Assembly: GCA_964494135.1 (NCBI GenBank)
Contig: CAZBQN010000001.1
Span: 78,412-142,411, forward strand
Reading direction: 5' to 3'
DNA from: an uncultured Ruminococcus sp.
Lineage (GTDB): Bacteria; Bacillota; Clostridia; Oscillospirales; CAG-272
DNA length: 64,000 nt
The notes below the pieces were generated by a model that was given only the letters and a program-made list of their open reading frames with translations, did no database searches and had not been told where the DNA came from. A program made the position numbers and the translations under genes. Below are positions 992-63,033 of this stretch, piece by piece (the first letter of the stretch is position 1; each line of letters opens with the position of its first letter).

Positions 992-1213
992 TCGAAAAGT
1001 GAGGCTCTGATAATTATCATTGAAGACGCCGGGACGCTTTATCCGATTGAAATCAAGAAGCATGCCGACCCGACAAAAAAGGATATTGAGGCCTTTGATT
1101 TGCTTTATAAAATAGGCGGAGTGAAGCGGGGCGAGGGAGGCGTTGTTTGCCTCTACGACAATCTTATGACACTAAAAGAAAATGACCGGATTATTCCAAT
1201 CAACTACATTTAA
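992..1213 (+). pseudogene. 3' remnant of a DUF4143-type AAA+ ATPase gene
   Basis: Open frame with no start codon. It encodes ...IIIEDAGTLYPIEIKKHADPTKKDIEAFDLLYKIGGVKRGEGGVVCLYDNLMTLKENDRIIPINYI*, which matches the C-terminal end of DUF4143 ATPases. The N-terminal roughly 300 aa are missing. Confidence 0.55.
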
Positions 1214-1273
1214 AATTTACTCGGGCATAAACTGACAAAAAGCAAATAGCTTTCCATAGGTTCAGCTCCGCAT

Positions 1274-1326
1274 AAAAAAACAGGCAGAGAGCCGTGCAAA
1301 AAACGGTCACTCTGCCTGTTGTTTTT
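1274..1326. terminator. Bidirectional terminator (groEL 3' end)
   Basis: 10-bp stem ACAGGCAGAG (1280-1289) / CTCTGCCTGT (1310-1319), flanked by an A7 run upstream and TGTTTTT downstream. Confidence 0.6.
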
Positions 1327-1393
1327 CCCTTTAGTGGGCACCCGTGCTGTATTTCAAGCGCGTTTTACACCCTCATACCCGGGAGACGAATTA

Positions 1394-3037
<1,644 letters not shown>

Positions 3038-3086
3038 TCATACAAATTGTTTGCCGATTGTTTAAAATACAGTTATGCAACCGTAT

Positions 3087-3374
3087 TTATTCCTCGACTA
3101 CCGCGAGAACGTCCGACTGGCTGACTATCTTATAGTCGACGCCGTCAAGCTTAATCTCGGTACCCGAATACTGAGAGGTGATAACCTTGTCACCCTCTTT
3201 GAGAGTCATGGTGACGGTCTCACCCTTTACAATGCCGCCGGGTCCTACCGCAACGACGACGGACACCTGAGGCTTTTCCTGCGCAGAGCCGGGAAGAAGT
3301 ATTCCCGCCTTGGTCGTTTCCTGCGCCTCGACCTTTTTCAAAACCACCTTATCAAATAAAGGCTTTAATTTCAT
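3087..3374 (-). CDS. groES: Co-chaperonin GroES
   Basis: The internal start gives MKLKPLFDKVVLKK... (95 aa), the typical GroES N-terminus. A GGAGGA RBS lies 6-7 nt upstream. The longer ORF (to 3434) has no support. Confidence 0.93.
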   Translation of the reverse strand: MKLKPLFDKVVLKKVEAQETTKAGILLPGSAQEKPQVSVVVAVGPGGIVKGETVTMTLKEGDKVITSQYSGTEIKLDGVDYKIVSQSDVLAVVEE

Positions 3375-3439
3375 AAAATTCTCCTCCATTTTCTTTTGCG
3401 GCACCGGGCTTTTCGCCCCGCCGTATATTGTCACGACAT

Positions 3440-3468
3440 ATTGTATACTATCGAATATTAAAAATCAA
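3440..3468 (-). promoter_or_regulatory. Putative sigma-A promoter of groESL
   Basis: On the minus strand: TTGATT (3468-3463), 17 nt, TACAAT (3445-3440). No CIRCE inverted repeat is visible in the leader. Confidence 0.45.
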
Positions 3469-8373: not shown

Positions 8374-9150
8374 TTACTGCATATATTTTTTCAGCTTTTC
8401 GATTGCGCCCTTTTCCAGCCTTGACACCTGTGCCTGGCTGATGCCGATTTCATCGGCGATCTCCATCTGGGTCTTGCCCTTATAAAAACGCAGGCGGACG
8501 ATATTCATCTCCCGCTCATTCAGGTGGGTCATGGCGTCGCGCAGGGACATATTCTCTATCCAGACGGATTCGGAGTCTGATTCATCCGACAGCTTGTCTA
8601 TGACGAACATCTTATCCTCGCCGTCGCCGTACACGCTGTCAAACAGGGATATCGGCTCAACGATAGCCTCCATAGCCTCGCCTACGGCGCGCTCGGTAAC
8701 ACCGAGCCTTTTTGCGATTTCGCCGAGCGTTGCCTCTCTCTGCTCGCCTCCCGAGATTTCCTCCTTGATTTGCAGGGCGCGGTATGCCAAATCCCTGACC
8801 CCTCTCGATACTCTTACCGCATTGTTATCACGCTGATAACGGCGCAGCTCTCCGATAATCATCGGCACCGCATAGGTGGAAAACTTAACGTCCATATCTA
8901 GATTGAAGTTATCAATCGCCTTTATCAGTCCAATACACCCAACCTGAAACAGGTCGTCGCCCGAATCGTGCTTCGGATTAAACCGCCCTGCCACACTCAG
9001 AACAAGTCTGAGATTGCCCATTATCAGCTCCTCTCTCGCCTCACGGTCCCCTCCCTGTGCTCTTTTCAGAAGCTCGCGCTTCTTTTCCTCTGACATAGTC
9101 TTTAGTGTCGAAGTATCAATGCCGCAAATTTCAACCTTGTTAGTTCGCAT
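8374..9150 (-). CDS. sigG: Sporulation sigma factor SigG
   Basis: From the internal start, MRTNKVEICGIDTS...GNLRLVLSV...DDLFQVGCIGLIKAIDNF...KFSTYAVPMIIGELRRY...GISQAQVSRLEK is near-collinear with Bacillus SigG as I recall it. The longer ORF start at 9180 is unsupported. Confidence 0.88.
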   Translation of the reverse strand: MRTNKVEICGIDTSTLKTMSEEKKRELLKRAQGGDREAREELIMGNLRLVLSVAGRFNPKHDSGDDLFQVGCIGLIKAIDNFNLDMDVKFSTYAVPMIIGELRRYQRDNNAVRVSRGVRDLAYRALQIKEEISGGEQREATLGEIAKRLGVTERAVGEAMEAIVEPISLFDSVYGDGEDKMFVIDKLSDESDSESVWIENMSLRDAMTHLNEREMNIVRLRFYKGKTQMEIADEIGISQAQVSRLEKGAIEKLKKYMQ

Positions 9151-9390
9151 TTTCACTCCAATCAGAAATTTTCGTGACAAATTGCAGGAAAAATGCCCAA
9201 AAACACGACACGCCCCCTGCCCTGACCGACAAATCTATTATTGACCGGCAGAGGCGAAAATACTCTGACAGAGGCGAATTTTGTTTTTAAAATCTAGGTT
9301 GACTTTTTTATAGAATGCAGTATGCCGTATGCATAAGCTTCCGCTGATGAAAAGCAGAATGTTTTTTAAGTGTTTCGAAAGAAATTCTAT

Positions 9391-9888
9391 CTACTTATAT
9401 AAATTTATAATTTCTTTTTTCTTTTTCGTCGCGTATTCATAAGCAATTTTTGTGCCGCTGTTACATCTTGACGGAAACGCGCGTTTTTTAAACTGCCGCT
9501 TTATGGGCGGAATATAATCTTCATTGTAATAAAAGGCACAATACGTAGAATTGTCTATCATCTCACAGTTACGCTCTACGTAAGAATATTTACCTGCATT
9601 TTCTATTTTGGTAGGAAAATACGTATCTTCGTACGATTTAAGCAAATATTCTTGATAAGTTTTATTGATATATTGAAAAGCAGACCTGACATACACTCTT
9701 TTTATGGCAGGATATATTTTTTTCAGTTCTGTAACAACCTCCAACGACAATCTGTCAAATTCACTATTACTGCCAAACAGAAAGGTTGTAACGCCCATAT
9801 TTATAAGTGTGATGACCGTTTCTTTCAGCGAGGAAACAAGCACCTCGTTTTTTTCAATAGTTCTATGACCTATAAAGCAAGCGTTCAT
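9391..9888 (-). CDS. SLOG-fold protein, DUF1273/YpsA-like (tentative)
   Basis: 165 aa with N-terminal CFIGHR...(G)SNSEFD...YP.IK.VYV, a pattern reminiscent of DUF1273. The gene sits in a visibly AT-rich stretch. Confidence 0.45.
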   Translation of the reverse strand: MNACFIGHRTIEKNEVLVSSLKETVITLINMGVTTFLFGSNSEFDRLSLEVVTELKKIYPAIKRVYVRSAFQYINKTYQEYLLKSYEDTYFPTKIENAGKYSYVERNCEMIDNSTYCAFYYNEDYIPPIKRQFKKRAFPSRCNSGTKIAYEYATKKKKEIINLYK

Positions 9889-10038
9889 ATTCTTTACCCT
9901 TTTTCGTGGAATTCCACAAAAATTATATCTAAAACATTAAACAAAGTCAATATCGTGGAGTTCCACGAGATAATATTTTTAATTATTTCCATAATTATTT
10001 CATGAAATACCTATAAGGAATACCCCGAAGGTGCGTAT

Positions 10039-19865: not shown

Positions 19866-20097
19866 AATTCTCTCCCATATCTGCCTGTCAAGCTCTCCGG
19901 ATATGAGATCCGACGGCTCACTGACAGCTTTGCATTCACAAGACAGTATCCGGCTTTCCTTGCGGTTTTATATAATATTTTAACATATATATATATGAAA
20001 ATCAAGTAAATAAAAATAACATGATGACGAAAAAAACACTTTTTTTGATAAAAAAGCAATTCCGAAATTTTTTATCTGAATTTTTTCTTAAAAACTA

Positions 20098-20126
20098 TTG
20101 ACAAACCTCGGTTTTTATTGTATAAT
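20098..20126 (+). promoter_or_regulatory. Consensus sigma-A promoter of tRNA-Glu
   Basis: TTGACA (20098-20103), 17 nt, TATAAT (20121-20126). The tRNA begins 19 nt after the -10. Confidence 0.7.
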
Positions 20127-20144
20127 AGCGGAGCATCTGATGAT

Positions 20145-20219
20145 GGCTCGTTGGTCAAGCGGCTAAGACACGGCCCTCTCAAGGCTGAAACGGGAGTTCG
20201 ATTCTCCCACGAGTCACCA
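20145..20219 (+). tRNA. tRNA-Glu (anticodon CTC), CCA encoded
   Basis: Hand-folded cloverleaf. Acceptor: GGCTCGT/ACGAGTC. D arm: GTC-AAGCGGCTAA-GAC. Anticodon arm: CGGCC-CT[CTC]AA-GGCTG. T arm: GGGAG-TTCGATT-CTCCC. It ends with A-CCA. Confidence 0.9.
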
Positions 20220-21093
20220 AGCAAAAAAGGACACCCGTAGCGGTGTCCTTTTTTGCTTGACGCTTCGCGGTCGATCAAACTCCCCTCGCGCACTTAGCTC
20301 AGCAGTAAAAGCGCACTTTGTGTCTCATAGCTTCACGGTCGCTCCGACCTTATCTGCGCGAATGGAGTTCGCAGTCCTGCCTGCACGGTCTCGCACGGCG
20401 AGACCCCCACGCCTTAATCTCGCTATCGGCTAAATGCTTTCCGCATAGCAAAGCCTGCCGCCTCAGCCTCCGGCAGGCAGATTCTCCCACGTCAGTCCGA
20501 GGGACTGCCACTTTTCTCTCTTTTCCCTTCTTCTATCGTCACAGACACCCGTAGCGGTGTCCTTTTTTGCTTGACGCTTCGCGGTCGATCGAACTCCCCT
20601 CGCGCACTTAGCTCAGCAATAAAAGCGCACTTTGTGTCTCACAGCTTCACGACCTCTCCGGCTTTTCCTGCGCGAATGGAGTTCGGAGCCCTGCCTGCAC
20701 GGTCTCGCCGTGCGAGACCACACAGCGACGGCTTCGTGTCGGCTCTATGCTACCCACAGAGAAACGGTTTTCACTTTTGCCTCCGGCAGGCAGATTCTCC
20801 CACGTCAGTCCGAGGGACTGCCACTTTTCTATCTTTTCCCTTCTTCTATCGTCACAGACACCCGTAGCGGTGTCCTTTTTGCTTGACGCTTCGCGGTCGA
20901 TCGAACTCCCATCGCGCACTTAGCTCGGCAATAAAAGCGCGCTTTGTGTCTCATAGCTTCACGACCGCTCCGTCCTTTCCTGCGCGAATGGAGTTCGCAG
21001 TCCTGCCTGCGCGGTCTCGCCGTGCGAGACCCCTCAGTGATGGCTTCGTGTCGGCTCTATGCTACCCACAGAGAAACGGTTTTCACTTTTGCC
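20200..21093 (+). repeat. Tandem array, about 313/314-bp unit, 3 copies (the first starts inside the tRNA T-loop)
   Basis: The anchor ACACCCGTAGCGGTGTCC occurs at 20231, 20545 and 20858. GATTCTCCCACG (tRNA positions 20200-20211) recurs at 20480 and 20793. Homology ends near 21093. Confidence 0.9.
20214..20258 (+). repeat. Left direct repeat (tRNA-Glu tail + terminator hairpin)
   Basis: TCACCAAGCAAAAAAGGACAC-CCGTAGCG-GTGTCCTTTTTTGCTT. This matches 23281-23325 except in the loop and for single-nt A/T-run differences. Confidence 0.8.
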
Positions 21094-21167
21094 CTTGGTT
21101 AACAGTTCCTACTGCCAAGTCTGTAGCGGACTTTCTCCGCCAAGTTGTAACGTGTGCCGAGCACACC

Positions 21168-21212
21168 AAGACACGAGGCGATGCCCGATTGAGCATCGCC
21201 TCGTGTCTTTAA
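21168..21212 (+). terminator. Strong hairpin terminator closing the repeat array
   Basis: 17-bp perfect stem AAGACACGAGGCGATGC (21168-21184) / GCATCGCCTCGTGTCTT (21193-21209), followed by T then an A/T-rich stretch. Confidence 0.55.
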
Positions 21213-21369
21213 ATTAAACACTCGTTTTTGTACTCGTGTCGCAATATCCTTTTCCTAATAGCAAAAGCGGATATTACCATGGTTTAGACCTTGCAATTTG
21301 AAATCGCATTTTTGAGCATTTTTCCGCGCCTTTTCTGTTCAAGCGGTGTAAATTTTGAGGAGCGAAAAA

Positions 21370-21705
21370 TTATAAATGCTTGTCAATAAGCTTTATCATT
21401 TCAATCGCCAGTTTTTTCTTGTTTTCGCTGAGTTTGCTGATTTCATTTGTTATTTCACAGCTCAGGTAATTTGGGTTTGACGGTGAGCTTTCTGTTATCA
21501 AGGATGCGATATCGCATTTGAGTGCTCCTGAAATTGCGCCCAATAAATCAAGACTTATTTTAGTGATGCCTCGCTCAACCTGACTGATGTAACCAATTGA
21601 AACATTAAGCTTTTCAGCAAGAGCTTCTTGCGTAATTTCAAGCTTTTTACGTTCCGTTTTGATTCTTGCTCCGATTAACTTATAATCAATACTCATTTCT
21701 CTCAC
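21370..21705 (-). CDS. XRE-family HTH transcriptional regulator
   Basis: 111 aa with an HTH_3 core (ITQEALAEKLNVSIGYISQVERGITKISLDLL). It is divergent from the 408-aa gene and is AT-rich. Confidence 0.8.
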   Translation of the reverse strand: MREMSIDYKLIGARIKTERKKLEITQEALAEKLNVSIGYISQVERGITKISLDLLGAISGALKCDIASLITESSPSNPNYLSCEITNEISKLSENKKKLAIEMIKLIDKHL

Positions 21706-21777
21706 CTCATTAAATAAGAATATAACATTACAAGCTAAAAATGAAGATACTGATAAGTTAAATTAAAGCTATAACTA

Positions 21778-21806
21778 TTGACAAAACTGTAGTTTGATGT
21801 TATAAT
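21778..21806 (+). promoter_or_regulatory. Consensus sigma-A promoter of the 408-aa gene
   Basis: TTGACA, 17 nt, TATAAT. It shares the 13-mer AACTATTGACAAA (21773-21785) with the tRNA-Glu promoter (20093-20105). Confidence 0.6.
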
Positions 21807-21828
21807 ACGTAAAAAAGGAGCGAGTGAA

Positions 21829-23055
21829 ATGGAAAATCTAAATGAAAAAACAGAATTTACCATGGCGGTTGAAAATCAAAGAAATAGGAACGGAGAAAAA
21901 TCTGAAATTTACAAGAGCGCTATTGAAGCGTGGGAAAATGCTGATTTTGAAGTCGCATACGATCTTTTCGAGCAGGTGATTAAACAATACCCTGAAAATG
22001 ATTTGGCTGGAATATTGTTTGCTATTTGCGGTAATATTCAGGATTATTTGGATGATGAGATTTTAGCGGATTCTTTTTGTGAGAGTTATCCAAAACTGTA
22101 CAAGGACGAATATTGCTTATCTTCCTATATGTGTTCTTATTTGGAAGAAACGGTAAATGATTTGCTTGAAAACTTAACGAAGGCATATAAGGGGAATTTA
22201 CCTCATCGTAAAATCGTTGATTTCGTTAGATCAACAGAAGCTGCAGTGAGGATTTTTGAAACAATCAAAAACGTTGCGGAACAGCGAAATGAAACTGACA
22301 GCTCTGAATATAAGGACTGCTTAAAATATCTCTGTATCTTATATCAGATAATGCAGAATAAATGCAAGTGCTCTGAGTGCGGCGGATACTGTAAATCTAG
22401 CGAATGGAAGATTAATGAGAATTGCGAAAAGAAACTGCAAATTGTAAAAGAGAAACTCGAAAATCTAAATGAAGATTTTTCTGTTAAGAAATACAAGGAT
22501 GACAAAGCTAAAAGTGAACAAAAGGCGGAAGAAGAGTATCAAAACAACACCGAATATGAAAATAGGGAAAGTATCCCCGAACAGAAAATTAAGGGCGCTA
22601 AAAAAATACTAAAGAAATCGTTTTATGGTTTGCTTGTAGGTGCGATTATTGCCTTCATATCTTTTATTAAGCCTGAATATTTTTCTCGTTTTCAAATTTT
22701 TTCGGTTGTTCTGTTGGTTACAAGTAGTATTATCGTTTTAGTAAGTTTTGCTACGATAATAGGACAGATATCGCGAAAACAGGTTTACTGTGGCAGATGC
22801 AAGAAGAAATTCAGGAAAGATGAAATTAAAGATATAAATATTTTGGGCGTTAAGGATGCAACGGATTCTCTTGTGACTATTATGTACGTCGCGGAGCTGA
22901 AATGTTCAGATTGCGGTAATTCTGTGTTAATAAAAAGAAAATTCAGTTTTTCAAAAAGCCTAAAGTATAATTTTGTAAGCAAAGAAGAAGCGATTGCTGA
23001 TATGAACGAGGCGGCAATTCGAGATTTTGAATCTTTTATCGACAGAACGTATTAA
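21829..23055 (+). CDS. Hypothetical membrane protein: helical/TPR-like N-domain, Cys cluster, coiled coil, 2 TM helices, C-terminal zinc ribbon
   Basis: 408-aa ORF with an AAGGAG RBS. It has CKCSECGGYC, then a Lys/Glu-rich segment. Hydrophobic stretches are FYGLLVGAIIAFISFI and IFSVVLLVTSSIIVLVSFATIIG. The C-terminus carries CGRC...CSDCG. No family was recognised. Confidence 0.7.
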   Translation: MENLNEKTEFTMAVENQRNRNGEKSEIYKSAIEAWENADFEVAYDLFEQVIKQYPENDLAGILFAICGNIQDYLDDEILADSFCESYPKLYKDEYCLSSYMCSYLEETVNDLLENLTKAYKGNLPHRKIVDFVRSTEAAVRIFETIKNVAEQRNETDSSEYKDCLKYLCILYQIMQNKCKCSECGGYCKSSEWKINENCEKKLQIVKEKLENLNEDFSVKKYKDDKAKSEQKAEEEYQNNTEYENRESIPEQKIKGAKKILKKSFYGLLVGAIIAFISFIKPEYFSRFQIFSVVLLVTSSIIVLVSFATIIGQISRKQVYCGRCKKKFRKDEIKDINILGVKDATDSLVTIMYVAELKCSDCGNSVLIKRKFSFSKSLKYNFVSKEEAIADMNEAAIRDFESFIDRTY

Positions 23056-23280
23056 AAAGAAGATCAAGCTTAAATCTCGGGGTTCTTCTTTGTTCAAGCT
23101 GTGTAATTTTTATAACCGTCAAGTTTTTTTCATTGATTTATGCGTAGTGATTTTTTGAAAATAAACATGTTCAAAACGACTTGAATGTTTTATCGTTTTA
23201 TTATAGCAAAACGCGATGCTAAAAATGAAAAGTATTGAATTTAAAATAGTAGAAAAAATTCGGATACCAGAGCATTTGCA

Positions 23281-23325
23281 TCACCAAGCAAAAAGGGCAC
23301 TACAAAAGAAGTGTCCTTTTTGCTT
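23281..23325 (+). repeat. Right direct repeat (copy of the tRNA-Glu tail + terminator)
   Basis: TCACCAAGCAAAAAGGGCAC-TACAAAAGAA-GTGTCCTTTTTGCTT. It also works as a bidirectional terminator between the 408-aa gene and the nuclease gene. Confidence 0.8.
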
Positions 23326-23462
23326 TATTTAATTACTTTTTCAACGTTAAAAGGGCTGAGTCAGCGGCTCAGCCCTCAAATCTTACCTATAAATCTTTTA
23401 CACTTCTGTCATTACAATTGCATCTATTTCCTAATGCATCTATATCCTACTGCGTCTATACT

Positions 23463-24947
23463 TTACCGTATCCATACCGCAAAAACGTACGCTGTGTCCT
23501 TCGTAACAATCATATTTGGCATTATACTGTCCATTTTTGCAAACCAGGAGATAATTAAGTCCCAAATAGGCTTGAAGAAGTCGTAAAGTGTTTCCCAGAG
23601 ATTTTTCGCTTCCTTCGGGACGGTTCTCGTAAATCCGCAGACGGTACAGGTTTCCTCTTGCATGCCGTCTTCGGTTTCGCCGGTTTTTTTGAAGCTGTGA
23701 TCTATCATGTGAATCTGCTCGCCGTAGGATAGTATTTTACCGCATTCGTCACAACAAATGTCGCCGGTGTAGCCGTCGGAGGTACAGGTTGCAGTCTTTT
23801 CATCTATCAAGGACGTAGATGGATGGGAACATTCGGGCGGAGTCACGGGATTATCGTCACCGTTGTCCGGCGGAGTCACGGGATTATCATCGCCGTTGTC
23901 CGGTGGGGTCACCGGGTTATCGTCGCCATTGTCCGGTGGGGTCACCGGGTTATCGTCGCCATTGTCTGGCGGGGTCACCGGGTTATCGTCGTCGCCATTG
24001 TCCGGTGGGGTCACCGGGTTATCGTCGGGGTCGGTGCCCTCCCTTGACGCGCTCGTGGGAGTGACAAGATCCTCGGGGACCTCCTCGCCGAAGAGCAGCC
24101 ACGCGTATTCGGGATAATCTATAAACACGTTTCTGTTGCCCTGAATTGCACCGACAACCTCGTTGCGCCCCATTTCCCAGGTGTCAACCGGGTCGAGAGC
24201 ACACCATTCGAGCAGTGTATCTATATCCCTGAAAACCGTGGTAATACTGCTGCACTTTGAATATTCGGTTCCGTATCTCACGTATACGTAAAGACATATA
24301 CGGGCGACGTCGCCCTTGACGTTGTCGAGGGGCTCAAAATAACCGCCGCTTACCCAGCCGCCTACCATGGAGTTAACGAGCGAAGATCCTACGGCAGTCT
24401 TGCCGCCAGTCACGTTTCCGTATTTTAAGTTGCCTCTGGTGCTGTTGAGCTTTGCGTCGGATGGGCGGATATGGTGCAGGTCGCTGCCTGCTCCGCTGGT
24501 ACCGAAGCCGCCGAGGCTCTGGGGCCAGACGTGCTCTCTGTTCCAGCCGACAGAGCCGCTGATGTAGTCAGAGCGTGTCACCGAAACGGAGGCGTAAATC
24601 AGATTTATCCGTCCGTCGCCCCCCTCGCAGTCGGTTTTTACAGCCATATCACGGCAATCGTTGTAGCTGGTCTTTTTTTTATGTGTGGAAGTCATAAGCG
24701 TGTTCAGGCTTTTGTAAAGCTCCCGGGACGTTAATTCCGAAAGTGCCTCGTATGTATACGAGCCGGTATAGTACTCGTCTGCGCTCGTTCCGTCAAGAGT
24801 CGTGCATACGACGTGCCTGGTGCCGGAGTTGTAAACCGAGGAATATTTCAGCGGTGCGCTCTCGCCCACGGCACATACGGGCAGGCTTGACAGGATTATC
24901 GCAAGGGTAATAATCAGCAAAACCGCTAAGCTTTTGAGTTTTTTCAC
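23463..24947 (-). CDS. Secreted endonuclease I / Bsn-like nuclease with a Pro-rich repeat stalk and a Cys-rich C-terminal region
   Basis: Endonuclease_1 motifs are present: NREHVWPQSLGG and DLHHIRPSD..LNSTRGN. A GTG start at 24947 follows AAGGAG and gives the signal peptide VKKLKSLAVLLIITLAIIL. Six NPVTPPDNGDD repeats are present. Confidence 0.8.
   Translation of the reverse strand: MKKLKSLAVLLIITLAIILSSLPVCAVGESAPLKYSSVYNSGTRHVVCTTLDGTSADEYYTGSYTYEALSELTSRELYKSLNTLMTSTHKKKTSYNDCRDMAVKTDCEGGDGRINLIYASVSVTRSDYISGSVGWNREHVWPQSLGGFGTSGAGSDLHHIRPSDAKLNSTRGNLKYGNVTGGKTAVGSSLVNSMVGGWVSGGYFEPLDNVKGDVARICLYVYVRYGTEYSKCSSITTVFRDIDTLLEWCALDPVDTWEMGRNEVVGAIQGNRNVFIDYPEYAWLLFGEEVPEDLVTPTSASREGTDPDDNPVTPPDNGDDDNPVTPPDNGDDNPVTPPDNGDDNPVTPPDNGDDNPVTPPDNGDDNPVTPPECSHPSTSLIDEKTATCTSDGYTGDICCDECGKILSYGEQIHMIDHSFKKTGETEDGMQEETCTVCGFTRTVPKEAKNLWETLYDFFKPIWDLIISWFAKMDSIMPNMIVTKDTAYVFAVWIR
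23834..24033 (-). repeat. In-frame 33-bp tandem repeat (about 6 copies, one of 36 bp) inside the nuclease gene
   Basis: GGGTCACCGGGTTATCGTCGCCATTGTCCGGTG-type units. They encode (D)DNPVTPPDNGD. Confidence 0.9.
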
Positions 24948-25104
24948 GTTCTTCTCCTTGTTTGCGTTTGCGCGAATGAATTCTTTTATAAATCTTATAA
25001 GATTATAACTCCGATTCAAATGCTTGTCAATACAAGAACAGGTTTTTCCGGAAAATCACCGAAATTTTTAAGAAATAAATTCTCACCCCCCGCGAACAAT
25101 ATGC

Positions 25105-27737: not shown

Positions 27738-28097
27738 ATGAAAGAAAATTTCCTTGTAGATTTATCAAAGCAATTTGCAGTTGATATTGTTAATCTCTGT
27801 ACAGATGTTAAAGAAAACCGCAAAAGCAACGTGTTATTAAATCAAGTATTGCGCAGCGGTACAAGTATTGGCGCAAACATTCACGAAGCGAACTATGCGG
27901 CAAGCAAGGCGGATTTTATCAACAAGTTCCAAATTGCTCTCAAAGAGTGTTACGAAACGGATTATTGGCTTGGGCTTTTCAAAGATGCTTACTTGATAAC
28001 CGAAGAAGAATACAAGGATATGTTTGCAAAATGTAGCAAAATCCGCAAATTGCTCATCTCCTCCATCACCACCGCAAAGAGAGATACAAATGGATAA
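27738..28097 (+). CDS. Four-helix-bundle protein (23S rRNA intervening-sequence / Avd-like family)
   Basis: From the internal ATG: MKENFLVDLSKQFAVDIVNLC...LRSGTSIGANIHEANYAASKADFINKFQIALKECYETDYWL, the signature of the PF05635-type family. The upstream part of the ORF is just translated repeats. Confidence 0.8.
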   Translation: MKENFLVDLSKQFAVDIVNLCTDVKENRKSNVLLNQVLRSGTSIGANIHEANYAASKADFINKFQIALKECYETDYWLGLFKDAYLITEEEYKDMFAKCSKIRKLLISSITTAKRDTNG

Positions 28098-28721
28098 AGC
28101 TCAAATTCTTGAAAATATATCAAAACTTCTCCTTGAAAGTAAAACCGAAGATGCAAAAGCGATAATTCAAAACGAATATCCTCACAAGCATATAGAGATT
28201 GAAAGACGTTCATATACTCTCAAAGAAAAAATGGAACAATTTCTTCGTGATGGTTTTATTGATAGATATACAGGAAAAAGACTTATTAATCCGGGATTGT
28301 TAAAAGTTATAACTCACTATTTCCCCGATGAATTCCCGTATGATCCGCATTGGAAGATGACGAAAACTCACATGGCATGCTGGGATTTGATACCTACGGT
28401 AGATCATATTTTCCGATTGCTCAAGGCGGTGCTGATAATCCAAGTAACTGGGCTACCACATCAATGAAGAATAATTCTATCAAAAGTAATTACTCTATTG
28501 AAGAAATAAATTGGACACTTCATCCAAGCGGAAGTTTAATCGATTGGGATGGATTAACAAGGCTGTTTATTGAACTTGTATCTAAAAACGAAGAATTGCT
28601 TTCAGATTCATACATAAAACAATGGTATAATATATCAAAAGCTGCAGGCGCTCTGTTCAAAATGCAATCTTGCAAGAGCGACCATACTGCAAAATGCAAT
28701 TTGCCGCCCGTGTCATCCTGA
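28090..28721 (+). pseudogene. HNH endonuclease gene disrupted by a 1-nt frameshift
   Basis: Frame A reads ...WDLIPTVDHIF, then becomes nonsense and stops at 28467. Frame B continues PIAQGGADNPSNWATTSMKNNSIKSN (the HNH core). The switch occurs at ATTTTCCG near 28405-28412. Confidence 0.65.
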
Positions 28722-28825
28722 GTGAAGCGGAGCGGAACCGAACTTTTTCGTCTGAGATCCCAAACGTTGCTTCGCACCGTTTGATCCTCGCTACGCTCGG
28801 ATTTCGACTACGCTCAGGATGACAC
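28710..28825. repeat. 13-bp perfect inverted repeat bounding a roughly 116-bp element
   Basis: GTGTCATCCTGAG (28710-28722) / CTCAGGATGACAC (28813-28825). It overlaps the 3' end of the HNH pseudogene. Confidence 0.7.
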
Positions 28826-28881
28826 AGACGAAAAAGCACCGAGCAACGCGAAGGCGGGATCTCGGGCAAAAAAGGAGAACA

Positions 28882-28947
28882 ATGTATTACGTTTATATGC
28901 TCACAAACAAGACCGATACCGTAACGTACATCGGTGTTACAAACGAC
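28882..28947 (+). pseudogene. Truncated duplicate of the GIY-YIG gene 5' end
   Basis: MYYVYMLTNKTDTVTYIGVTND compared with the intact MYYVYILTNKTDAVMYIGVTNN, which starts 86 nt downstream. It has its own AAGGAG RBS. Confidence 0.6.
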
Positions 28948-28967
28948 CCCACGCAAAAGGAAAACAA

Positions 28968-29249
28968 ATGTACTACGTTTACATACTCACGAATAAAACC
29001 GATGCCGTAATGTATATCGGCGTGACAAACAATTTGCGACGACGTTTATATGAACATAAGAACGAACAAATCGAAGGTTTTACAAAAAAATACCATGTGC
29101 ATAAGCTCGTCTATTTTGAAGAATATTCCGAGATTAACGTTGCAATAGCACGGGAAAAACAGTTAAAGCGCTGGATACGTGCTAAAAAGAATTGGCTTGT
29201 GGAAACAAAAAATCCGAACTGGGATGATTGGGGAGAAAGGTTTATTTAG
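28968..29249 (+). CDS. GIY-YIG nuclease family protein (UPF0213-like)
   Basis: 93 aa: YYVYILTN...MYIGVTNNLRRRLYEHK...REKQLKRW, the classic small GIY-YIG domain. Confidence 0.85.
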   Translation: MYYVYILTNKTDAVMYIGVTNNLRRRLYEHKNEQIEGFTKKYHVHKLVYFEEYSEINVAIAREKQLKRWIRAKKNWLVETKNPNWDDWGERFI

Positions 29250-39900: not shown

Positions 39901-39989
39901 AATTTCACCGCGGAGCGATTTCATCCGAACATCGTGAGGATTTCACCCGTCGAAGACGGATTTCACATTGGCGGGCGCCAATATTTCAC
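39901..39989 (+). repeat. Five direct (G)ATTTCAY motifs at 16-23 bp spacing
   Basis: Copies at 39902, 39918, 39940, 39960 and 39983, each followed by a different GC-rich 8-16-mer. The array ends in a 10-bp hairpin, GTGCTATGCA...TGCATAGCAC (39991-40019). Confidence 0.8.
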
Positions 39990-40146
39990 TGTGCTATGCA
40001 ATCGGAGAGTGCATAGCACCTTGCCACCGGCGTGCTTTTGCACAAAAGGACTTGTCAATTTTTTTGCAATTTTCTTATTTATTTTTTTGTTCTTTTATGT
40101 TATACTGTATATGTTAAATATATGAGGACGAGGAATGGACTGAAAA

Positions 40147-61164: not shown

Positions 61165-61262
61165 GCCAAGCAGAATAGATCAGGGGCGCCGAAAGGCTGA
61201 GACAGCATACGCTGGACCCTTTAACCTGATACGGATAATGCCGTCGTAGGGAGATTTGGATT
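61165..61262 (+). ncRNA. TPP (THI-box) riboswitch
   Basis: Conserved cores are present: GGGGCGCC...GCTGAGA...ACCCTTTAACCTGATACGGATAATGCCGTCGTAGGGA. It is located in the 5' leader of a thiamine transporter gene. Confidence 0.9.
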
Positions 61263-61332
61263 TTATGACCTTAAATCATACCGCACGGAGTCTGTCTCTG
61301 CGCGGTAATTTTATTTAAGGAGGTTCGTTTTT

Positions 61333-62148
61333 ATGAAACGGACAAACACAAAGAAGCTCATTGAAGCTGCACTGATGGTTGCTCTGGCAACCGTACTTAG
61401 CCTTATCAAGGTGGTTGACATGCCTTACGGCGGCTCGGTCACCCTGGCATCCATGCTCCCCATCATCATCCTCTCCTACCGTAACGGCTTAGGCTGGGGT
61501 ATGGGCGGCGCTGTCGTCTACGCTGTTATTCAGCAGCTGCTGGGACTGAAGAATCTGTCCTACTTCACCACCCCCGAATCTATCATTGCGGTAATCCTTT
61601 TGGACTACATTATCGCCTTTGCCGTTTTGGGTCTTGGCGGTATGTTCCGCAGGGTTGTAAAGCGTCAGTCCACAGCCGTTGTCCTCGGTGCTGTTTGCAC
61701 GAGCTTTATCCGCTACGTATGCCACGTTATCGCCGGCTGTACCGTATGGGCAGGTCTGTCAATTCCCGACTCCGCCGCTTTCTGGTATTCCGTAGGCTAC
61801 AATGCGACGTATATGATTCCCGAGACAATAATTCTCGCCGCAGTTGCATATTATCTGTGCGATACCGTTGACTTTACCAAAGAGGTTCCCGAGCGTATTA
61901 AAAGACGCGCGCACGCCCCCGAGACGTCCATGCTCTATCTCACATCCGGCATCACCCTGCTTGGCGGTCTTATCGCCGACGTGGTTCTCATCACACCCTT
62001 CCTCCAGAATCCGGAAACCGGCTCCTTCGACTTTGCAGGTCTTGCAGACGTTAAATGGCTGGCAGTAGGTATCGTTACCGCCCTCGCCCTTATAATAGGC
62101 ATCGGCGTTTTCGCATACGCCGCTCTCAGGGAAAACTCCAAAGAGTAA
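61333..62148 (+). CDS. thiT: ECF-transporter S component for thiamine (ThiT-like), with a C-terminal extension
   Basis: LIEAALMVALATVLSLIKV...PYGGSVTLASMLPII...R.G..WG pattern, six or more TM helices, and riboswitch context. Confidence 0.75.
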   Translation: MKRTNTKKLIEAALMVALATVLSLIKVVDMPYGGSVTLASMLPIIILSYRNGLGWGMGGAVVYAVIQQLLGLKNLSYFTTPESIIAVILLDYIIAFAVLGLGGMFRRVVKRQSTAVVLGAVCTSFIRYVCHVIAGCTVWAGLSIPDSAAFWYSVGYNATYMIPETIILAAVAYYLCDTVDFTKEVPERIKRRAHAPETSMLYLTSGITLLGGLIADVVLITPFLQNPETGSFDFAGLADVKWLAVGIVTALALIIGIGVFAYAALRENSKE

Positions 62149-62270
62149 ATTCAAAAAACAATCAATACGATACGGAGAGAAAAGCTCAAAAAGGCAAAAC
62201 ATTCCCAGGAAACCGACACGGGTCCGCACTTACCGCAGTTTCCATAGGAATTTTGATTGTACAAATTATT

Positions 62271-62304
62271 AAACTCGACTTTTGATGAGTCGAGTTTTCT
62301 TTTA
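62271..62304 (+). terminator. Terminator after thiT
   Basis: Stem AAACTCGACT / AGTCGAGTTT, then TTTCTTTT. Confidence 0.65.
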
Positions 62305-62419
62305 CTCACGTAAAAACAACTTGCGTTATACATGTTTTTTTGATATAATAAACTCAACGATAAATAAGAATTTGGCGAATTGTATGGAAAATGAAGATAC
62401 ACTGTAAGGAGATAACAAA

Positions 62420-62836
62420 ATGAAAGATTATGTAAGAAAGATAAATTATTACGAAACCGATAAAATGGGAATTACCCATCATTCAAACTACGTTCGTTTT
62501 ATGGAGGAAGCTCGAATAAACTATTTGGAAGAGATTGGTTGTGGTTACGATAAATGGGAGAAGGACGGCATCATTTCTCCTGTTATTGGCATCGAGTGCG
62601 AATATAAGCGCCCAACAACCTTTAACGATGAGATCCGCATCCATGTTGAGATTACAGAGTACAAAAGACTCAAGCTCACTGTGTCATATACGATGTATAG
62701 CACTAAAACCGATGAGGTCGTGTTTGTTGGTAAGAGCCATCATTGCTTTGTGAATGCCGAGGGCAGACCAATAGCACTTTCTCGTCAATATCACGAATAC
62801 GATAAGATAATGACAGATGAACTTAATAGAGAATAA
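62420..62836 (+). CDS. Acyl-CoA thioesterase (4HBT / YbgC-like hot-dog fold)
   Basis: 138 aa with YYETDKMGITHHSNYVRFMEEAR, typical of the family. Confidence 0.8.
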   Translation: MKDYVRKINYYETDKMGITHHSNYVRFMEEARINYLEEIGCGYDKWEKDGIISPVIGIECEYKRPTTFNDEIRIHVEITEYKRLKLTVSYTMYSTKTDEVVFVGKSHHCFVNAEGRPIALSRQYHEYDKIMTDELNRE

Positions 62837-62940
62837 AACAAATTCCAATTTACCGAACCGTTGTGTTATGTGGAAAAATATTTTAAAAGTGTAGCACACT
62901 AACTTTGCAGGCAAAGTCGTGTGTTTTACAAGGCAAGAGG

Positions 62941-62974
62941 AAAAGGCTGACGAAAATTTTTCGTCAGCCTTTTA
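62941..62974. terminator. Bidirectional terminator
   Basis: 26-nt perfect palindrome GGCTGACGAAAAATTTTTCGTCAGCC, flanked by AAAA and TTTT. Confidence 0.65.
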
Positions 62975-63033
62975 TGTCGTCTGAAATAATCCATATTGGA
63001 ACTGCGCTTTCTGCCGACCCTTTTTCTTTTTTT

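Follow-up and report, generated by a model that had tools for sequence, protein, structure and literature searches.

In a 64,000-nt stretch of DNA from an uncultured Ruminococcus sp. (contig CAZBQN010000001.1, positions 78,412 to 142,411; hereafter the window), 3.07 kb behind a tRNA-Glu gene are bracketed by an imperfect 45-bp direct repeat, one copy of which overlaps the tRNA 3' end. The interior is composite and made of three unrelated layers: tandem non-coding units, the stump of a group II intron and an AT-rich module of two genes. The reading we favour, with about even confidence, is that of a decayed and accreted island at a tRNA-Glu hotspot, without a recombinase of its own and comparable to a cis-mobilizable element (CIME). 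The features concerned are the following, in window coordinates, H_L and H_R being the left and right terminator hairpins.

20098-20126, plus strand: sigma-70 promoter of tRNA-Glu (TTGACA-17-TATAAT), 12/12 consensus match
20145-20219, plus strand: tRNA-Glu (anticodon CTC), CCA encoded (ARAGORN; Rfam tRNA, 59.8 bits)
20214-20258, plus strand: left repeat copy, the last 6 nt of the tRNA and the bidirectional terminator hairpin H_L
20230-21093: 2.8 tandem copies of a 313-bp non-coding unit (TRF period 312, 89% matches; alignment)
20259-20572, 20573-20885 and 20886-21093: units W1, W2 and W3, W3 being truncated
20259-20285, 20573-20599 and 20886-20911, plus strand: degenerate antisense T-arm/acceptor copies at the unit starts (read from sequence and folds)
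20471-20494, plus strand: degenerate sense copy of the tRNA-Glu 3' part (CGGCAGGCAGATTCTCCCACG-TCA), 81% identity to 20191-20211
20784-20807, plus strand: second degenerate sense copy of the tRNA-Glu 3' part
20544-20572 and 20857-20885: terminator copies ending the full units
21084-21166, minus strand: class-C-like group II intron, of which a 5' stump of about 83 nt beginning with GUGUG is left (blastn, Rfam of plasmid loci, alignment)
21168-21209, minus strand: 17-bp-stem hairpin, XRE gene terminator and intron target hairpin (17/17 complementary)
21216-23280: AT-rich foreign segment, 30-35% GC, about 33% (composition profile)
21330-21356 and 23085-23111, plus strand: 27-nt imperfect direct repeat, 23/27 identical, bracketing the XRE/408-aa module exactly
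21370-21705, minus strand: XRE-family helix-turn-helix (HTH) regulator, 111 aa (Pfam HTH_3, 3.7e-14)
21778-21806, plus strand: sigma-70 promoter belonging to the 408-aa gene itself (extended -10 TG, 12/12 consensus)
21829-23055, plus strand: orphan 408-aa protein with a tetratricopeptide repeat (TPR)-like N-domain carrying a CxxC pair, two transmembrane helices and a C-terminal zinc ribbon
23281-23325, plus strand: right repeat copy, TCACCA and the bidirectional terminator hairpin H_R (16-bp stem and T-run)

The left copy of the bounding repeat reads TCACCAAGCAAAAAAGGACAC-CCGTAGCG-GTGTCCTTTTTTGCTT from 20214, and the right copy TCACCAAGCAAAAAGGGCAC-TACAAAAGAA-GTGTCCTTTTTGCTT from 23281. Flanks and stems match, with 14 nt exact in addition to the matching stems, and the loops are unrelated; H_L terminates tRNA-Glu and H_R the 408-aa gene. 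When the tRNA tail and its hairpin were compared with the whole window outside 19900-21400, the site at 23281 was the top match with a local score of 39 (background mean 13.3, standard deviation 2.3, next-best score 22). The repeat of tRNA tail and hairpin recorded in the initial annotation is real and the best non-self match in the window. The generic, dispersed terminator family that had been named as the finding that would speak against it was not seen, as no further copies of this hairpin type occur within the 64 kb. Just left of the right copy, TAGAAAAAATTCGGATACC at 23243-23261 resembles the 5' arm of a tRNA-Glu terminator from another genome (TAGAAAAACGGATACC, locus L097 below), and a 16-nt stretch before the tRNA promoter (20073-20088) is complementary to it at 94%; a half-terminator remnant is one possibility, a coincidence of AT-rich sequence another.

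The only credible genes between the repeats are those for the XRE regulator and the 408-aa protein. No recombinase or reverse transcriptase was found there, nor among the integrase-sized open reading frames (ORFs) tested elsewhere in the window, and the survey of ORFs and Pfam domains bears out the earlier statement that the bracketed DNA encodes no integrase or recombinase. CIMEs keep their att sites, have lost their integration genes and undergo tandem accretion (PMC5704250). The segment shares with them the direct repeats, of which one extends into the target tRNA at its 3' end, the absence of its own integrase, excision and transfer genes, a small foreign cargo, and signs of tandem accretion and decay. 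It differs from them in that no related integrase-bearing element is known, that only 6 nt of tRNA are duplicated at the outer repeat, and that the interior on the tRNA side consists of tandem palindromic tRNA-derived units and not of ordinary island DNA. Foreign composition is limited to 21216-23280; the array, at 56% GC in the composition profile, is host-like (about 52-54% for the host, the window being otherwise at 50-55%).

The initial annotation had proposed that an empty site should read tRNA-Glu followed directly by a terminator of the 23281 type; the predicted junction of tRNA-Glu to H_R would be ...CCCACGAGTCACCAAGCAAAAAGGGCACTACAAAAGAAGTGTCC. The right host flank offers an anchor for such a comparison.

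23350-23383, minus strand: separate terminator hairpin of the Endonuclease-I gene (read from sequence: GGGCTGAGCCGCTGACTCAGCCC then TTTTAACG on the minus strand)
23463-25019, minus strand: Endonuclease-I family gene, right host flank (Pfam Endonuclease_1, 4.4e-38)

A homologue of this endonuclease (P0004, 67% identity) lies on L086, a contig of the Logan collection whose run accession is a neighbouring one. There, a tRNA-Glu whose 3' 52-53 nt are identical to those of the window is followed by a bidirectional terminator, about 175 nt and the convergent endonuclease stop, with neither the array nor the XRE and 408-aa genes between tRNA-Glu and endonuclease. The expected order of tRNA-Glu followed directly by a terminator was thus recovered, with Endonuclease-I behind it, but not the expected terminator, its stem differing from both window hairpins. 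Set against this related species, the 3.07 kb present themselves as extra DNA. Three other endonuclease homologues (P0005, P0031, P0050) lie in other contexts without a tRNA. The C-terminal part of the protein varies among homologues, and the window gene contains a 33-bp tandem repeat (4.7 copies, 23836-23991) encoding a PPDNGDDNPVT linker.

The gut bacterium of the window is itself Oscillospirales/Acutalibacteraceae-like. The LysR gene was dropped as an anchor for the empty site, since its closest relatives (GTDB, n=80, L005-L084; LysR only 61-66% identical) have no tRNA-Glu at this position. In most of these 80 loci from Acutalibacteraceae/Oscillospirales metagenome-assembled genomes the LysR-AdhE pair is kept (AdhE 85-91% identical). 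No conservation is seen beyond LysR in the other direction, and neither tRNA-Glu nor the array nor the right-hand genes were found next to LysR. A matching attP would be expected to contain TCACCAAGCAAAAA or the T-loop core GGAGTTCGATTCTCCC; a scan of IMG/VR for the tRNA 3' 20-mer gave 0 matches. The bounding copies are accordingly spoken of here as putative attL and attR sites, from sequence, and any mobilization in trans is likewise presumptive.

The AT-rich cargo of two genes, as first described, was confirmed and is confined to 21216-23280. Its foreign origin is indicated by its composition together with the occurrence of the 408-aa gene in a different context, on the 1.8-kb contig L003, where a 71% identical homologue keeps its own promoter and has no XRE gene or tRNA beside it. 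A second homologue (L004) keeps the upstream region leading to the XRE gene, and neither locus has the bounding repeats or a tRNA. These were the two homologues among 5.8e9 proteins; a profile search among 1.84e9 representatives gave 13 relatives at E<=1e-3, the remote ones with sub-threshold TPR and zinc-ribbon matches. The 408-aa protein belongs to no Pfam, PADLOC or PHROG family, and tblastn against phages and plasmids gave no homologue. Its AlphaFold (AF2) model, with a mean confidence (pLDDT) of 67, predicts a helical N-terminal domain, two transmembrane helices and a small C-terminal beta zinc ribbon, and its Foldseek matches to TPR folds are weak. The XRE protein resembles HTH_VI, CapH and control-protein-like defence-associated regulators in PADLOC. 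The 27-nt repeat around the module, by our own estimate of borderline significance, may mark a smaller insertion nested inside the AT-rich DNA.

It had also been suggested that the promoters of cargo and tRNA are linked by a common 13-mer, AACTATTGACAAA. The 13-mer is indeed found in both, but the link does not hold: both promoters match the sigma-70 consensus at 12/12 positions, and each type is kept separately in its own lineage, that of the tRNA (CTATTGACAAACCT...TTGTATAATA) upstream of an identical tRNA-Glu in L098 (CCTATTGACAAACCT...TTGTATAATA) and that of the cargo in L003 and L004 (AAGTATTGACAAAA...). Promoter capture via the 13-mer is ruled out, and the shared sequence is a convergence on the sigma-70 consensus. 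Elsewhere in the window, AT-rich patches of 36-39% GC at 9001-10000, 28001-29000 and 62001-63000 may be other small foreign insertions.

The second layer was recognized through plasmids. In blastn searches the array region matched 26 plasmids of Staphylococcus, Enterococcus and Paenibacillus with 76-90% identity, all within 21076-21174. In E. faecium NZ_CP040851 and Paenibacillus NZ_CP068596 (loci L087 and L088) the match corresponds to the opening ~90 nt of ltrA introns, and Rfam models D1D4-3 and D1D4-1, with domain V as well in the E. faecium locus, are found downstream; RVT_1 and GIIM are the domains of the reference intron-encoded protein, which lacks an endonuclease domain. Intrinsic terminators are known insertion sites of group IIC introns (PMC4424553). 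In the plasmid introns GUGUG directly follows a terminator hairpin, and the alignment shows the same layout on the minus strand of the window, where the 17-bp hairpin comes after the XRE stop and the intron GUGUG begins 1 nt further on. Its position downstream of that stop identifies the hairpin as the XRE terminator; of the 17-bp-stem terminator first described, the stem therefore stands, and it is the minus-strand terminator of the XRE gene, with the intron stump beyond it.

What the window shares with group IIC introns is the 5' GUGYG, homology to the 5' part of domain I over the first ~85 nt (21084-21166), and an insertion site 1 nt after a terminator hairpin on the same strand. It lacks the rest, having a 5' stump only, without the D1-D4 core, domain V/VI or the reverse transcriptase/maturase that such introns encode. 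No Rfam group II model (D1D4, DV) matched at E<=10 in 20000-23400, or window-wide at the gathering threshold, and no reverse transcriptase ORF for the stump was found. As aligned, the stump is a fragment and not a functional intron. It joins the third, truncated unit at GGCAAAAGTG, the corresponding intron sequence being GGCAAGGGTG; a microhomology of 8/10 nt at this point suggests that the junction arose by deletion.

The first layer, the array, begins at 20230, within the tRNA terminator, so that the hairpin GACACCCGTAGCGGTGTCC recurs at 20230, 20544 and 20857. Read in the orientation of the tRNA, each unit opens with the antisense T-arm/acceptor copy, followed by a second stem and an insert of ~108 nt closed by the stem CTGCCTGC/GCAGGCAG; then come the sense copy GATTCTCCCACG-TCA, a small hairpin, a CU-rich tract and the terminator copy. 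The sense copy corresponds to the T-loop, the 3' strand of the T-stem and the 3' strand of the acceptor, and the CGAACTCC of the antisense copy pairs with the sense GGAGTTCG downstream. Outside a subregion of ~65 nt (20405-20470), W1 is ~90% identical to W2 and W3; this subregion, which lies in the stem-closed insert and differs strongly from both, forms a mosaic or variable segment. The array itself, announced as 3 x 313 bp of GC-rich cargo, is there, with a copy number of 2.8 instead of three. It is not cargo, given its host-like GC, its copies of the tRNA-Glu 3' end and the homologous units behind tRNA-Glu in other organisms.

Several identities for the units were tried and rejected. T-box, Y RNA and tRNA-like identities found no family match in Rfam 15, which gave nothing at E<=10 for the window units or at E<=5 for loci L096-L099. 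A coding reading was abandoned: W1 and the first L097 unit (A1) read the common CGTGGGAGAAT in different frames, as judged by eye, and translated array ORFs matched nothing among 5.8e9 proteins. A miniature group II intron was rejected for the whole unit, which has no D1D4 or DV signal and a homology that stops after ~85 nt. Against phages the array had no match, and its plasmid matches cover the intron stump only; 18-mer matches in IMG/VR were confined to the 18-mer itself and due to chance. A second array pattern gave 0 matches, as did a 23-mer searched at JGI.

Units of this kind are not limited to the window and also trail tRNA-Glu on other Oscillospirales contigs. A metagenome scan with the tRNA 3' 28-mer gave six loci (L096-L101). 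In L098 (units at 1040-1421, minus strand) an identical tRNA-Glu(CTC), with a homologous promoter and a terminator, is followed by at least two tandem units of 158 nt. These open with TGGTGACYCGTGTGGAGAATCG, a clearer antisense copy of the tRNA 3' end than that of the window, and close with GGCAGATTCTCCCACG and a terminator whose stem, GGACACC/GGTGTCC, matches that of the window. In L097 (units at 2735-3440) a tRNA-Glu(TTC) precedes three units of window-like architecture, which a nhmmer profile of the window units matches at E values of 1.6e-4 and 2.3e-3 in 1.3 Mb of fetched DNA. The initial annotation had suggested looking for the 313-bp unit next to other tRNA genes, and these homologous units lie behind tRNA-Glu. 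L100 and L101 have other RNA sequence directly behind tRNA-Glu (tRNA-like in L101), with no terminator and no units. The tRNA-Glu of L098, with the same promoter, sits in a different neighbourhood, next to rluD/lspA.

The units of the other genomes are 158-300 nt long, tRNA-Glu-derived and terminator-ended, and their arrays are followed by AT-rich accessory genes, in L097 for a DUF2806 protein and in L098 for a membrane protein. The AT-rich DNA begins in L098 at precisely the point that corresponds to the T-loop in an antisense copy of the tRNA end; in L097 no second copy of the tRNA tail was found beyond the cargo within the 5.5 kb searched. Across units and genomes the stem closing the insert (8-11 bp) has five different sequences and always pairs, and the second stem also varies with its pairing kept. 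Among the window and 101 fetched loci, GATTCTCCCAC is restricted to tRNA-Glu loci. The contigs of L096 and L099 end a few bases into an apparent unit start, which suggests that arrays fragment assemblies; L001 and L002 likewise terminate at arrays, and exact-protein matches of LysR and the 408-aa protein came from the same sample only, on contigs broken at the array. As arrays break short-read assemblies, array loci are systematically under-sampled.

The decayed-island reading would join the three layers as follows. One or more small elements would have entered tRNA-Glu by site-specific integration, at its 3' end or T-loop, with the help of a tyrosine integrase encoded elsewhere or since lost, leaving partial tRNA copies and the duplicated tail and terminator as att-like scars. 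Unequal crossing-over between terminator repeats could then have amplified the 313-bp unit, and a group IIC intron could have retrohomed behind the XRE terminator. The remainder of the intron and the end of the third unit would then have been lost in a deletion at the short microhomology between the two. Most likely the segment can no longer move today without the arrival of a matching integrase, as is the condition of a CIME.

Integration at the T-loop reportedly leaves copies of the 3' part of the tRNA (Williams, in 2002). Partial tRNA genes are a known by-product of integration at tRNA genes (PMC9897764), and like such attR remnants the 3' tRNA copy of the unit starts in the T-loop (GATTCTCCCACG...). 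The units differ from these remnants in having antisense copies too, in the splitting of the sense T-arm by a stem-closed insert of 48-109 nt, and in being tandem, terminator-ended and 158-313 bp long.

Several observations weigh against the decayed island. Merely 6 nt of the bounding repeat lie inside the tRNA, and its unrelated hairpin loops mean that it is no simple fresh duplication. In stem and loop, H_L is similar to the terminator behind the identical tRNA-Glu of L099 (AGGCACCCGAAGCGGTGCCT), so that it may be native rather than element-borne. The species of L086 is a different one, as the 67% identity of its endonuclease indicates, and the absence of the segment there could reflect loss; no same-species empty allele, circular junction or integrase with a matching attP was found. 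Each unit also carries an antisense copy, consistently across five loci, and several stems pair with different sequences. Classical integration leaves direct tRNA fragments only. The consistent antisense copies and maintained pairings therefore fit a selected structure better than random scars.

A second explanation we regard as possible and clearly less probable: the units would be functional structured RNAs, a tRNA-Glu-derived family of small RNAs or tRNA-like RNAs produced through read-through or processing of tRNA-Glu. Each would have its terminator and an exposed C/U-rich tract resembling an anti-Shine-Dalgarno sequence. In the 45-bp repeat one would then see no more than the family's terminator module, beside which AT-rich genes came to lie by chance; the explanation is compatible with the island model. 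It is consistent with an architecture kept in three genomes despite low identity, namely a 5' hairpin (CGAACUCC/GGAGUUCG and the second stem), the stem-closed insert, a single-stranded AUUCUCCCACG, the small hairpin, the CU-rich tract and a plus-strand terminator. RNAalifold pairs are kept with changes on both sides, and the units are confined to tRNA-Glu loci.

Folding favours the minus strand for the long units (-118 to -122 vs -96 kcal/mol), where they also beat shuffled sequences (z -3.1 to -3.3 vs -1.45). The strand is nevertheless ambiguous, as in short units the plus-strand fold is slightly the better one, the preference tracks GC skew, and the T-runs of the internal terminators are on the plus strand only. 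No promoter was found within the units and every unit is preceded by a terminator; no Rfam family matches, and the related species of L086 has no units. The covariation comes from about three independent lineages and can be mimicked by palindromes arising from inverted duplication. Listeria has the tandem small-RNA arrays LhrC1-5, and in E. coli the tRNA spacer 3'ETS-leuZ has a regulatory role. The units resemble these in being short, non-coding, terminator-ended and tandem, with a C/U-rich tract and a position in a tRNA trailer, but they have no promoters of their own, lie beyond a terminator and show no sequence relation.

An origin without any site-specific recombination seems unlikely. Template switching and slippage during replication, at the hairpins of T-arm and terminator, would have produced all the copies of tail and terminator, the sense and antisense tRNA-end copies and the tandem units through inverted and tandem duplication driven by quasi-palindromes, and the AT-rich module would have entered by illegitimate or homology-facilitated recombination. 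Such a process could account for the tRNA 3' end, terminator and inverted 3' end of L098, which form one palindrome centred on the terminator loop with all breakpoints within the T-loop hairpin, for the start of the array inside the terminator stem, and for the 8/10-nt microhomology at the junction of third unit and intron. It does not readily explain why the same architecture lies behind two tRNA-Glu isoacceptors in different organisms, which requires inheritance with constraint or transfer, nor why the bounding hairpins have unrelated loops with stems kept; the AT-rich genes behind each array are left unexplained.

Equally improbable, in our view, is that the units are undescribed, selectively maintained tRNA-Glu-derived elements, acting as RNA or as recombination sites, single-stranded or duplex, and forming an integron-like capture platform. 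Lying specifically behind tRNA-Glu in Oscillospirales, the units would then serve as a landing pad, at which small AT-rich accessory genes are captured and later reshuffled by a recombinase encoded elsewhere. A literal reading of the units as integron attC sites was rejected, as they carry GGAGTTCGA and ATTCTCCCACG and not the R'' RYYYAAC and R' GTTRRRY cores; no IntI was found.

The initial annotation's alternative of an active small element, similar to a satellite or an integrative and mobilizable element (IME) and mobilized in trans between attL and attR, has no positive support and is very improbable, for although it would suit the bounding direct repeats, the strong promoter and regulator of the cargo and the occurrence of the cargo gene in another context (L003), there is no integrase, excisionase, replication, packaging, mobilization or transfer gene and no oriT-like match, PHROG and PADLOC give only a generic HTH, no homologue of the cargo protein is found in phages or plasmids, L003 and L004 share the gene alone (L004 also the upstream region) and not the repeats or tRNA, and the dead intron stump and truncated repeat inside are signs of decay.

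Two further RNAs above the Rfam gathering threshold lie elsewhere in the window, a Gut-1 RNA on the minus strand (39913-39991, 56.6 bits) and a thiamine pyrophosphate (TPP) riboswitch on the plus strand (61172-61269, 75.2 bits).

If the segment is a decayed island its biology is ordinary, and a repeat of tRNA tail and terminator without an integrase need not imply a satellite. Unit arrays recur behind tRNA-Glu in several uncultured gut and rumen Clostridia, each with AT-rich accessory genes, and this tRNA-Glu-linked family of units appears to be undescribed. Were the units RNAs, they would constitute a new tRNA-derived family; were they recombination sites, they would account for the accumulation of recombinase-less cargo at this tRNA.

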